The position numbers and the translations under genes are program-made. Positions 6,434 to 24,782 of a stretch of DNA of 64,000 bases are shown one piece after another. A model generated the notes under the pieces. It saw only the letters and a program-made list of their open reading frames with translations. It had not been told where the DNA came from and searched no databases. This DNA comes from Escherichia coli (GTDB taxonomy: Bacteria; Pseudomonadota; Gammaproteobacteria; Enterobacterales; Enterobacteriaceae). Within the stretch, counting starts at the first letter, position 1, and each line of letters begins with the position of its first letter. The DNA is taken from assembly GCF_003334385.1 (NCBI RefSeq), contig NZ_QOWN01000011.1. One strand, written 5' to 3'.

Positions 6434-7213
6434 TCATTTCTTCTTCAATTGCGTCACCACCAACTGGTGGCGCGAATTATAAAACTTACGATAGGTTAAA
6501 TAGCAGGCAATAATGGTCGACAAGCTGGCGGTTGAGAGCAGCATAAAGGTCACCATAATCTGATATTTAATCGCCTTCACCGGATCAATCCCGGCAAATA
6601 TCAGCCCGGACATCATTCCTGGTAAACTCACTAAGCCAACCGTTTTTGCTGAATCGACCGTCGGAATTAAAGCCGCGCGAATACTGTCGCGAATCAATAT
6701 CGCTGAAGCCTGCTTCGGCGTCGCACCAAGACTCAGTTTCTCCTGAATCTGTTGCTGTTCGCTAATGACCCGTTGCCCTAAATTGTTGTAACACAACCCC
6801 ACCGCTACCATGGCGTTACCGGCAATCATCCCGGCGATAGGGATCACCTGCATCGGGATAAATTCAATCGACCCTGAGAGAATCAGCACCGCCAGGGTAA
6901 TTCCCGCCCCGACCGTAATGGCAATAAACGATGAGATAAAAGCTTTAGCAATATATTTACTGCGTTTTTGCGCGTTCCACGCCGCATTAAAGCAGATAAA
7001 TAACACCATCAATAATGTCAGGCTGGCATCATCCACGCTGAAAATATACTTCAGCACATAGCCGACAATAATCAGCTGAATTATCGCTCGCCCGACGCTC
7101 CAGAGAATATCTTTCTCCAGCGCCAGTTTTTCTTTATGGCTAATTAAGATTGCCACCACCACCAGCATTAATGCCAGTGCTAATGATTCGTTAGTAATAT
7201 TATGCGAGTTCAT
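6434..7213 (-). CDS. fetB: Iron-export ABC transporter permease (UPF0014 family), 259 aa
   Basis: Start taken at MNSHNITNESLALALMLVV within track ORF 6434..7240; hydrophobic throughout; overlaps fetA 3' end by 14 bp. Confidence 0.88.
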   Translation of the reverse strand: MNSHNITNESLALALMLVVVAILISHKEKLALEKDILWSVGRAIIQLIIVGYVLKYIFSVDDASLTLLMVLFICFNAAWNAQKRSKYIAKAFISSFIAITVGAGITLAVLILSGSIEFIPMQVIPIAGMIAGNAMVAVGLCYNNLGQRVISEQQQIQEKLSLGATPKQASAILIRDSIRAALIPTVDSAKTVGLVSLPGMMSGLIFAGIDPVKAIKYQIMVTFMLLSTASLSTIIACYLTYRKFYNSRHQLVVTQLKKK

Positions 7214-7877
7214 AGCGTGCTTCCTGCATTTCTCCGGCATGCGGTTGCAGTGTAATCACTTTATCCGCATGATTAATTTCGTCTTTATCGTGTGTCACCC
7301 ACAGCACGGCAATATTTTGCTCGCGCACATAACGATGGATCATCTCATTGACGTTATGTTTATTACTTTCATCCAGCGCACTGGTTATTTCATCCAGCAA
7401 TAAAACCTTCGGCATAAATTGCAGGTTACGAATCAATGAGATGCGTTGTTTTTCACCACCAGATAGCTCGGCGATATTCTTCGTCAAAATGCTGTCCGGC
7501 AAGGCGAAGCGTTCGAGAAAATCGAGAAAAATGGCTGGGTCAGGCTGCCGGTTACGGATCTGCCAGGGAAAGATCAGATTATCGTATACCGTATCGCCAA
7601 ACAGCGTCGGTGTCTGGGCGCAGTAAGAGACTTGTTGGCGGTAGATTTCTGGCTTTAGTGTGCTGACATCCTCACCTTCAAACAGTAACGTTCCGCTGGT
7701 TGGGCTGATCAATGAAGCAACTATTTTTAGCAGCGTACTTTTGCCACAACCAGAAGGACCGGTAATTAACTTAAATTCGCCAGCACGCAGCGAAAAATTG
7801 ATGTTATTAAGAATCTTCGCATCACCCGCCAGATATCCTACGTTTTGTAGCTGAAGCAAAGGACTATTTTCCTGCAT
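7200..7877 (-). CDS. fetA: Iron-export ABC transporter ATP-binding protein, 225 aa
   Basis: Walker A GPSGCGKST, signature LSGGEKQR, Walker B LLLDEITSALD. Confidence 0.9.
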   Translation of the reverse strand: MQENSPLLQLQNVGYLAGDAKILNNINFSLRAGEFKLITGPSGCGKSTLLKIVASLISPTSGTLLFEGEDVSTLKPEIYRQQVSYCAQTPTLFGDTVYDNLIFPWQIRNRQPDPAIFLDFLERFALPDSILTKNIAELSGGEKQRISLIRNLQFMPKVLLLDEITSALDESNKHNVNEMIHRYVREQNIAVLWVTHDKDEINHADKVITLQPHAGEMQEARYELA

Positions 7878-8022
7878 CGCTGTTCCCTTTTTCTGATTTT
7901 TACTAAAAACAGTTTATCCTTCGCAGGAATAAGGGGGAACTCTCTTTCAGTAATCAGGTATAATTTGTTTAATCAAGCAGCAATTTTGCTGATTATGGAC
8001 GGTACAACAGGAGGTTTTTCCG

Positions 8023-8940
8023 ATGCTTATCTTTATCCCGATTCTCATTTTTGTCGCGCTGGTCATTGTCGGCGCGGGTGTCAAAATCGTACCGCAGGGC
8101 TATCAGTGGACAGTAGAACGCTTTGGTCGCTATACCAAAACGTTACAGCCGGGGCTCAGTCTGGTGGTGCCGTTTATGGATCGCATTGGTCGCAAGATCA
8201 ATATGATGGAGCAAGTGCTCGATATCCCTTCCCAGGAAGTTATCTCGAAAGATAACGCCAACGTTACCATCGACGCCGTGTGCTTTATTCAGGTGATTGA
8301 CGCGCCGCGCGCGGCTTATGAAGTCAGCAATCTGGAGCTGGCGATCATCAACCTGACCATGACTAACATCCGTACCGTGCTGGGTTCAATGGAACTTGAC
8401 GAAATGCTCTCTCAGCGCGACAGCATCAACTCACGCCTGCTGCGTATTGTCGATGAAGCCACCAACCCGTGGGGGATTAAAGTCACCCGTATTGAAATTC
8501 GCGACGTGCGCCCACCGGCAGAGCTTATCTCTTCAATGAACGCGCAGATGAAAGCGGAACGTACCAAACGCGCTTACATTCTTGAAGCGGAAGGGATCCG
8601 TCAGGCGGAAATCCTCAAAGCCGAAGGTGAAAAACAGTCGCAAATCCTGAAAGCGGAAGGCGAACGTCAGTCGGCGTTTTTACAGGCTGAAGCGCGTGAA
8701 CGTTCCGCCGAAGCAGAAGCCCGCGCCACCAAAATGGTGTCTGAAGCTATCGCCTCCGGTGATATTCAGGCGGTGAACTACTTCGTAGCGCAGAAATACA
8801 CCGAAGCGTTACAGCAGATCGGTTCCTCCAGTAACAGCAAAGTAGTGATGATGCCATTAGAGGCCAGCAGCCTGATGGGGTCGATTGCCGGGATTGCCGA
8901 GCTGGTGAAAGACAGCGCCAACAAACGGACTCAGCCATGA
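8023..8940 (+). CDS. qmcA: SPFH/stomatin-family membrane protein, 305 aa
   Basis: N-terminal TM helix followed by stomatin/band-7 domain and coiled-coil EAEG/KAEG repeats. Confidence 0.9.
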
Positions 8941-9395
8941 TGGAGTTAATGGTCGTTCATCCACATATTTTCTGGCTCAGTCTCGGCGGTTTGCTGCTGG
9001 CAGCCGAGATGCTGGGCGGAAATGGTTATTTGTTGTGGAGCGGCGTGGCAGCGGTGATTACCGGCCTGGTGGTCTGGCTGGTGCCGCTGGGTTGGGAGTG
9101 GCAAGGGGTAATGTTTGCCATCCTGACGCTGCTCGCCGCCTGGCTGTGGTGGAAATGGTTGTCGCGGCGGGTGCGCGAACAAAAGCACAGCGATAGTCAT
9201 TTAAACCAGCGCGGGCAGCAGCTGATTGGCCGACGTTTTGTGCTGGAATCTCCGCTGGTCAACGGGCGCGGTCATATGCGCGTCGGTGACAGTTCATGGC
9301 CTGTCAGCGCCAGCGAGGATCTCGGTGCAGGTACGCATGTTGAAGTCATTGCGATAGAAGGGATAACCCTACATATCCGAGCCGTCTCGTCTTAA
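8937..9395 (+). CDS. ybbJ: NfeD-like membrane protein partner of the SPFH protein, 152 aa
   Basis: Overlaps qmcA stop by 4 bp (ATGA); hydrophobic N-terminal two-thirds plus C-terminal beta-rich domain, as expected for NfeD. Confidence 0.85.
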
Positions 9396-9803
9396 TCACC
9401 CTGCCCGATGATGACAGCAGCCGGAGAGATTTTCGATAATCGGGCAGTCGGCGCTGTCATCGCCAGGGCAGGCATTCGCCAGTGCCAGCAGCTGGTCGCG
9501 CATGGATTGCAGCTCCTCAATGTGTCGTTCGATCTCCGCCACCTTCTCCAGCGTGCGCCGTTTGACGTCGGCGCTGTGCCGCTGCGGGTCGTTAAACAGA
9601 TTCACCAGCTCGCCGCTCTCTTCCAGGTTAAAGCCCACCTGCCGTGCCTGGCGCAGTAAGGTCAGTTCGTTGAGATGCTGCTGCGTGTAGGTGCGATAAC
9701 CGTTTTCGCTGCGCATCGGCGGCGTCACCAGCCCCTTCTCTTCATAGAAGCGAATGGCTTTGCTGGTCAGGCCGGTAATTTTTGCTACATCGCTGATGTT
9801 CAT
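9396..9803 (-). CDS. cueR: MerR-family copper-responsive transcriptional activator, 135 aa
   Basis: [28 protein letters not shown]; C-terminal [10 protein letters not shown] metal-binding loop; stop codon directly abuts ybbJ stop. Confidence 0.93.
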
Positions 9804-9927
9804 CGTTCGCGCAACGCCTCCTGTGCTTTGTTAAAGGGTTTCAACAGATATTCAAGCACGTTTTTTTGCCAGTGCGAATATCGACCGCCACCACAATAAT
9901 ACAGGAAGTACTGCGCACAGAGAGATG

Positions 9928-23822: not shown

Positions 23823-24782
23823 ATGAAGCCGGAAAACAAACTACCTGTTCTGGACCTTATTTCTGCTGAAATGAAGACCGTTGTGAATACTCTTCAGCCG
23901 GATTTACCGCCCTGGCCCGCAACGGGAACGATTGCTGAGCAACGACAGTATTACACGCTTGAGCGCCGATTCTGGAATGCGGGCGCTCCAGAAATGGCAA
24001 CCAGAGCTTACATGGTTCCAACAAAATATGGGCAGGTGGAAACACGTCTCTTTTGTCCGCAGCCAGATAGCCCAGCGACGCTATTTTATTTGCATGGAGG
24101 CGGTTTTATTCTCGGCAATCTCGATACCCACGATCGCATCATGCGCCTGCTGGCAAGCTACAGCCAATGTACGGTGATTGGTATTGATTACACCCTTTCA
24201 CCTGAAGCGCGTTTTCCGCAAGCGATAGAGGAAATTGTGGCTGCTTGTTGTTATTTCCACCAGCAGGCGGAGGATTATCAAATCAATATGTCCCGCATTG
24301 GCTTTGCCGGTGATTCCGCAGGTGCCATGCTGGCGCTCGCCAGTGCGTTGTGGTTGCGTGATAAACAGATCGATTGCGGTAAAGTTGCGGGCGTTTTGCT
24401 GTGGTATGGGCTTTACGGATTACGGGATTCCGTGACTCGTCGTCTGTTGGGCGGTGTCTGGGATGGCTTAACGCAACAGGATTTGCAGATGTACGAAGAG
24501 GCATATTTAAGCAACGACGCGGACCGCGAGTCGCCGTATTACTGTCTGTTTAATAATGATCTCACTCGCGAAGTTCCGCCCTGTTTTATTGCCGGGGCGG
24601 AGTTCGATCCGCTGCTGGATGACAGCCGTCTGCTTTACCAGACGTTAGCGGCGCATCAGCAGCCCTGTGAGTTCAAACTCTACCCAGGCACGCTGCACGC
24701 CTTTTTGCATTATTCACGGATGATGAAAACCGCCGACGAGGCTCTTCGCGACGGCGCTCAGTTCTTTACCGCTCAGCTTTAG
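23823..24782 (+). CDS. aes: Acetyl esterase (alpha/beta hydrolase, HSL family), 319 aa
   Basis: HGGGF oxyanion-hole motif and GDSAG nucleophile elbow. Confidence 0.93.

Follow-up and report, generated by a model that had tools for sequence, protein, structure and literature searches.

The qmcA-ybbJ operon of Escherichia coli: a stomatin-type SPFH gene overlapping the gene of its short NfeD partner

Positions 8023-9395 of the stretch of DNA analyzed here (64,000 nucleotides of Escherichia coli, hereafter the window) hold the E. coli operon qmcA-ybbJ, two plus-strand genes recovered alike from the ORF list, the raw sequence, and RefSeq (Table 1). An SPFH (stomatin-like) protein gene overlapping by 4 bp (ATGA) the gene of an NfeD-like partner had been predicted here from the sequence alone, and both the coordinates and the overlap proved exact; the names qmcA and ybbJ stood as well, with 100% DNA identity and the same RefSeq annotation. 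In a strain without ungapped mismatch to window positions 7878-9395, the RefSeq CDS coordinates of both genes were those of the ORF list (qmcA named SPFH domain-containing protein and ybbJ NfeD family protein). The 1701-base region around the pair was 100% identical to many E. coli chromosomes and was found in 5421 of 5426 complete E. coli genomes, presence being defined as coverage of at least 80% of the 1701-base query. This distribution and the Band_7 and NfeD profile matches in Table 1 identify qmcA and ybbJ as real genes and not chance ORFs.

Table 1. Features of the qmcA-ybbJ operon (window coordinates) and distances from SPFH stop to NfeD start in orthologous pairs
Feature	Position	Strand	Details
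Candidate -10 hexamer of the qmcA-ybbJ promoter, TATAAT	7959..7964	+	Located by eye; 58 nt upstream of the qmcA ATG; no good -35
Shine-Dalgarno (SD) sequence of qmcA, AGGAGG, strong	8009..8014	+	Duplex with 16S 3' end, -11.0 kcal/mol
qmcA (ybbK) CDS	8023..8940	+	305 aa; ATG start; ORF; stomatin-type SPFH protein; RefSeq CDS qmcA
N-terminal hydrophobic membrane anchor, QmcA residues 1-27	8023..8103	+	Kyte-Doolittle 19-residue window peak 3.03
SPFH / Band 7 domain, QmcA residues 21-191	8083..8595	+	Pfam PF01145, E = 1.9e-39
QmcA C-terminal region, residues 238-296	8734..8910	+	Pfam Band_7_C PF16200, borderline, E = 0.001
ATGA overlap	8937..8940	+	ybbJ ATG 8937-8939; qmcA TGA 8938-8940
ybbJ CDS	8937..9395	+	152 aa; ATG start; ORF; short-form NfeD protein; RefSeq 'NfeD family protein'
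Hydrophobic membrane-embedded N-terminal half, YbbJ residues ~4-75	8946..9161	+	Two to three hydrophobic segments (hydropathy profile)
NfeD C-terminal partner-binding (OB-fold type) domain, YbbJ residues 94-148	9216..9380	+	Pfam PF01957, E = 5.1e-12
Enterobacterales, SPFH stop to NfeD start			-4 (ATGA) in 19/24 pairs, -1 in 2, +2 in 3
Xanthomonadales, SPFH stop to NfeD start			+1 to +4 in 24/24 pairs; GGAG-like motif inside SPFH gene end
Pasteurellales, SPFH stop to NfeD start			19-208 nt spacers; SD-like motif visible in short ones
Alphaproteobacteria and others, SPFH stop to NfeD start			Mostly -4 to +30; few larger gaps

The pair is flanked on one side by fetA and fetB, which are divergent from it, and on the other by cueR, which is convergent with zero gap, with copA 3 kb off (RefSeq). 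Some irregularities of annotation were found in these surroundings. The annotated overlap of fetA and fetB is 14 bp (window 7200-7213, minus strand), whereas the longest fetB ORF (6434..7240) would extend the overlap to 41 bp; the sequence alone thus leaves the start of fetB ambiguous. Directly upstream of cueR, and overlapping its start by 4 bp, RefSeq places a 98-bp frameshifted and N-terminally truncated pseudogene remnant annotated as hypothetical protein (9800-9897, minus strand). Farther along the window, the convergent genes aes (plus strand) and hemH (minus strand) share 4 bp where their 3' ends meet (24779-24782, RefSeq coordinates). An insertion sequence breaks qmcA itself in three of the complete E. 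coli genomes (NZ_CP101666.1, NZ_CM128582.1, and NZ_CP154406.1), two having an element of the IS1 family and one ISVsa5, and the annotation there gives two SPFH fragments; thus, the gene is dispensable in some natural strains.

The SPFH assignment was borne out by the Band_7 profile, which QmcA covers nearly whole (model positions 1-174 of 176). Between this domain and the C-terminal region, the translation contains an Ala/Glu-rich helical repeat region (approximately residues 190-237). In a search of the PDB, the nearest solved relatives of QmcA besides itself were stomatins, Pyrococcus horikoshii PH1511 (3bk6, E = 2.8e-35) and human stomatin (4e-29), with HflK (E = 4e-14) and the flotillins (approximately 1e-4 to 2e-4) as more distant matches. 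QmcA also scored under the NCBIfam cut-offs of HflK (TIGR01933, 78.9 versus 159.4 bits), HflC (TIGR01932, 43.8 versus 134.4 bits), and FloT (NF058507, 35.8 versus 700 bits), and the Pfam Flot model matched only with E = 0.0058. The ranking of the PDB matches and the scores below these cut-offs therefore indicate a stomatin-type SPFH protein and not an HflK/C or flotillin equivalog. With stomatins nearest, and not HflK/C, prohibitins, or flotillins, QmcA fits the prokaryotic stomatin subgroup SPFH1a of Hinderhofer et al. 2009 (PMC2636767), who assigned YbbK to the SPFH1 group. We conclude from these comparisons that QmcA is a stomatin-type SPFH protein with one N-terminal membrane anchor; the rest of the protein has been placed in the cytoplasm, and inner-membrane fractionation has been reported (bioRxiv 10.1101/2022.07.25.501378). 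The same 2023 paper put forward, as a suggestion, the term "bona fide flotillin" for QmcA, a label at odds with the stomatin-type character that its sequence indicates.

The prediction of an NfeD-like partner depended on YbbJ having similarity to the family in a profile search, and YbbJ does match PF01957 over nearly the entire model (positions 2-56 of 57). NfeD was the sole significant domain in the Pfam search, which detected no ClpP-like protease domain. No NCBIfam model matched YbbJ (its PGAP name is still NfeD family protein), and the NMR structure 2k5h gave a weak match. Hinderhofer et al. 2009 (PMC2636767) characterized short NfeD proteins by a length of 140-150 aa, by three hydrophobic stretches, and by a beta domain that is soluble. 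With its 152 aa, hydrophobic N-terminal half, and lack of a protease domain, YbbJ is identified by its predicted features as a short-form NfeD (NfeD1a). YbbJ was called a "long NfeD protein" in a 2026 paper (PMC13086221), but the length of the protein and the absent protease domain contradict that label as far as can be judged from its sequence.

The partnership of both proteins was to be checked by co-immunoprecipitation, a proposal that is superseded by the cryo-EM structure of the complex. PDB entry 8z5g contains 26 chains named Protein QmcA and 26 named Inner membrane protein YbbJ; QmcA of the window is identical to chain A over 305 of 305 residues and YbbJ to chain B over 152 of 152. Papers citing the work behind this entry (Tan et al. 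2024, Structure 32:1603) depict 26 heterodimers arranged as a cage, which projects into the cytoplasm around an enclosed patch of inner membrane. Through the identity to the solved entry, QmcA of the window can be credited with the large ring or cage oligomer of the SPFH superfamily and, since both sequences are found in one entry, the pair with forming a physical complex.

The two genes differ markedly in their initiation signals. Upstream of qmcA, a 9-mer (CAGGAGGUU, starting at 8008) pairs with the 16S 3' end, while the best SD pairing upstream of ybbJ reached only -3.2 kcal/mol (weak) against the -11.0 kcal/mol of qmcA. E. coli ybbJ has a second ATG (8940-8942) directly after the first; however, codon 2 is ATT, ATC, ATA, or ACA in the orthologues of E. 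albertii, Enterobacter, Salmonella, Pluralibacter, and others, and this variation among enterobacterial orthologues marks the overlapping first ATG as the conserved start of ybbJ. As for transcription, the consensus scan called no promoter upstream of qmcA, the TATAAT hexamer seen by eye having been missed for its poor -35. The qmcA/ybbL spacer appears among the constitutive-promoter sites of the RpoD holoenzyme in a genomic SELEX study (PMC3946193). Both genes would be co-transcribed from a promoter in the fetA-qmcA spacer.

A weak downstream SD combined with an ATGA junction is the classic arrangement for coupling by termination and reinitiation. Since ybbJ has almost no SD and its ATG overlaps the stop of qmcA, most of its translation probably comes from ribosomes that finish qmcA and then reinitiate. 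Such coupling would tie the synthesis of YbbJ to that of QmcA in both place and amount, as would suit a 1:1 complex, and we regard putative translational coupling from qmcA to ybbJ as likely. Initiation of ybbJ gated by RNA structure was also considered and was rejected, as the mRNA at the junction folded no better than shuffled sequences (z = +0.6).

To compare the arrangement across species, we searched a single genome of each species for the QmcA motif NPWGIKVT by means of a degenerate DNA pattern, which yielded 120 loci, 111 of them with a complete SPFH ORF; selection by this motif biases the sample toward the QmcA-like subfamily. The start codons of the NfeD genes were refined by alignment to YbbJ before the junctions were measured. 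In this QmcA-biased sample, a YbbJ-like gene followed on the same strand in 93 of the 111 loci with a complete SPFH ORF, nearly always directly adjacent, most gaps lying between -4 and +20 nt, so that the two genes are adjacent, co-directional, and paired across taxa, as expected of an SPFH-NfeD module. The claim that SPFH/NfeD pairs are a conserved module was thus upheld, in agreement with Hinderhofer et al. 2009 (PMC2636767). In three of the 111 loci, from Actinomycetota and Chloroflexi, NfeD lay upstream of the SPFH gene; one of these, in Chloroflexi locus L109, was a 443-aa long form (long by its size, with a putative protease domain). The remaining 15 loci were truncated or archaeal. No adjacent NfeD was detectable in the archaeal loci sampled, and the one inspected had unrelated neighbors. 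In seven Pasteurellaceae loci (L039, L040, L070, L082, L086, L097, and L108), an ABC-transporter ATPase gene was found 0-46 bp from the SPFH gene on the same strand, and both may belong to one operon; the similarity of these ATPases to FetA is generic (E 1e-13 to 1e-20).

The order of SPFH gene followed by short NfeD gene with a tight junction is, on this comparison of predicted genes, widespread in Proteobacteria. The junctions (Table 1) show the ATGA overlap to be mainly enterobacterial and point to tight linkage, not overlap, as the conserved feature. This separation of a conserved linkage from an enterobacterial overlap is a small but checkable addition of the present analysis.

The distances bear directly on whether the overlap has a role of its own. 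A 4-base overlap is a common bacterial way of linking two genes. The first 50 kb of the window contain 24 co-directional pairs of neighboring CDS, of which two, ybbA-ybbP and qmcA-ybbJ, have an exact ATGA overlap, while three further pairs overlap by 1, 11, or 14 bp. The overlap of qmcA and ybbJ is therefore not unusual in itself. It could be without any functional role, ATGA being simply the most compact and commonest way for operon genes to abut, with ybbJ translated independently; we consider this possible but on balance unlikely. The recurrence of ATGA in ybbA-ybbP speaks for it, as do the orthologous pairs of Xanthomonadales, Pasteurellales, and Alphaproteobacteria, which function with small or large gaps. 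That related lineages such as Xanthomonadales and Pasteurellales keep the pair without overlap also means that the overlap is not required for the SPFH-NfeD module to work. However, an independently translated ybbJ would have to do so with no usable SD of its own, whereas the lineages with real spacers have an SD-like GAGG or GGAG motif before the NfeD start in their junction sequences. Moreover, the overlap has been retained across many enterobacterial genera while the last codons of QmcA vary. These points favor coupled translation of ybbJ in the enterobacterial arrangement.

At its other end, ybbJ converges on cueR with zero intergenic bases, its TAA stop (9393-9395, plus strand) abutting the cueR stop (9396-9398, minus strand). 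No intrinsic terminator was found by the terminator scan between both genes. The 3' end of cueR contains, immediately past ybbJ, a very stable palindromic hairpin (9400-9472, plus strand; -41.2 kcal/mol; z = -4.73, with 0 of 200 shuffles folding as well), followed by no U-run on either strand. The distance between ybbJ and cueR varies in relatives: the 3' ends overlap by 4 bp in many other Enterobacteriaceae but are 112 bp apart in the GTDB representative of E. coli (L066) and 1326 bp apart in E. albertii (L012). The abutting stops, the absence of a detectable terminator, and the stable hairpin at the shared 3' end make it conceivable that the transcripts of qmcA-ybbJ and of cueR overlap in antisense and that each affects the expression of the other, which would tie production of the SPFH cage to copper sensing. 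Nevertheless, we judge this very improbable. Conservation of the hairpin is uneven among other enterobacteria, the equivalent 91-nt regions of 24 enterobacterial loci giving z values from +0.8 to -5.3, and this variable folding led us to reject the hairpin as a conserved element.

What the cage does has to be approached from published work. Multicopy qmcA (ybbK) is reported to rescue an ftsH htpX double mutant and QmcA to interact with FtsH (PMC2636767). YbbJ is described as a helper in other published work. QmcA forms punctate foci in the inner membrane that are altered in a cardiolipin-synthesis mutant; neither single SPFH mutants nor the quadruple mutant had a growth defect, and the sensitivities seen in phenotype arrays were put down to the loss of HflKC and not of QmcA (bioRxiv 10.1101/2022.07.25.501378). 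In Salmonella, SdiA regulates the orthologous srgKJ, but the fusions identified as SdiA regulated did not include the E. coli reporter. The original prediction had noted that the client of the module in E. coli remained unclear, and this is still so in the literature, with no growth defects and array sensitivities assigned elsewhere.

Suppression of the ftsH htpX defect by overproduced QmcA, the QmcA-FtsH interaction, and the helper role of YbbJ suggest that the QmcA-YbbJ cage most likely acts as a cytoplasm-facing scaffold in membrane-protein quality control, the best-supported mechanism given the published genetics. Instead of a scaffold linked to proteolysis, the cage could be an ATP-independent holdase that confines and stabilizes unfolded membrane proteins. 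S. aureus FloA with its operon partner NfeD is reported to stabilize unfolded proteins in membrane microdomains (Ukleja et al. 2024, PMC11222466), and the operon architecture of an SPFH gene with a short NfeD gene is common to FloA-NfeD and qmcA-ybbJ. However, the analogy would have to bridge two types of SPFH protein, since QmcA is stomatin-type and not flotillin-type, falling far short of the FloT cut-off and matching the PDB flotillins at approximately 1e-4 versus 1e-29 to 1e-35 for stomatins, and no stress phenotype has been attributed to QmcA in E. coli (bioRxiv 10.1101/2022.07.25.501378). We therefore see the holdase as a rather unlikely, though live, alternative.

A functional tie to the metal-related neighbors appears extremely improbable. 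Under this reading, qmcA-ybbJ would work with fetAB (iron export), the copper regulator gene cueR, and copA, and the client would be a metal transporter. In its favor, the E. coli pair sits between fetAB and cueR with copA close by, and the adjacency of cueR is retained in 19 of 27 Enterobacterales loci. On the other hand, a CueR homologue within 3 kb was found in none of the 84 loci outside Enterobacterales. FetB was adjacent only in one unclassified MAG, enterobacterial-looking, the other FetA matches being generic ABC ATPases (E 1e-13 to 1e-20). Such lineage-specific synteny is what vertical inheritance of gene order would produce, and the metal-gene neighborhood was rejected as evidence for a client, cueR adjacency being confined to Enterobacterales. 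A link to phage defense, considered because srgK is mentioned from Tn-seq in connection with phage resistance, was rejected too, since PADLOC-DB 2.0 gave no match for QmcA or YbbJ at E ≤ 0.01; among the PHROGs, QmcA had generic SPFH-like matches only and YbbJ none.

Taken together, we are highly confident that window positions 8023-9395 are a two-gene qmcA-ybbJ operon encoding a stomatin-type SPFH protein and a short NfeD protein, which correspond to a solved complex of 26 + 26 chains, with probable translational coupling and a likely role as a quality-control scaffold. Publications already cover both genes and the families they belong to, as well as their pairing and the atomic structure of the complex. 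As a discovery the locus is thus of small weight, and what the cage encloses or regulates is not brought closer by the window sequence.

Among known systems, the E. coli QmcA-YbbJ complex (PDB 8z5g) derives from the same locus as the window and presents no difference, the proteins being identical and the gene order and overlap as in RefSeq. The P. horikoshii pair PH1511/PH1510 is likewise an SPFH/NfeD operon pair (PMC2636767), and PH1511 is the closest solved relative of QmcA from another organism; however, PH1510 is a long NfeD whose serine protease domain, of ClpP type, cuts the stomatin at its C-terminus, whereas YbbJ has 152 aa and no protease domain. Like QmcA, HflK/HflC with FtsH form an SPFH cage in the inner membrane, and QmcA shares with them a reported FtsH interaction and the similarity to HflK noted above. 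HflKC is a hetero-24-mer that faces the periplasm and has no NfeD partner, while QmcA forms a cytoplasm-facing 26-mer with YbbJ. The flotillin-NfeD pairs (E. coli YqiK-YqiJ, B. subtilis FloT/YuaG-YuaF, and S. aureus FloA-NfeD) resemble qmcA-ybbJ in combining an SPFH gene with a short NfeD gene in one operon and in forming punctate foci. They differ in the type of SPFH protein, flotillin-type in these pairs and stomatin-like in QmcA, and in gene order, as nfeD precedes the SPFH gene in the flotillin operons (yqiJ lies upstream of yqiK), whereas in qmcA-ybbJ the SPFH gene comes first.
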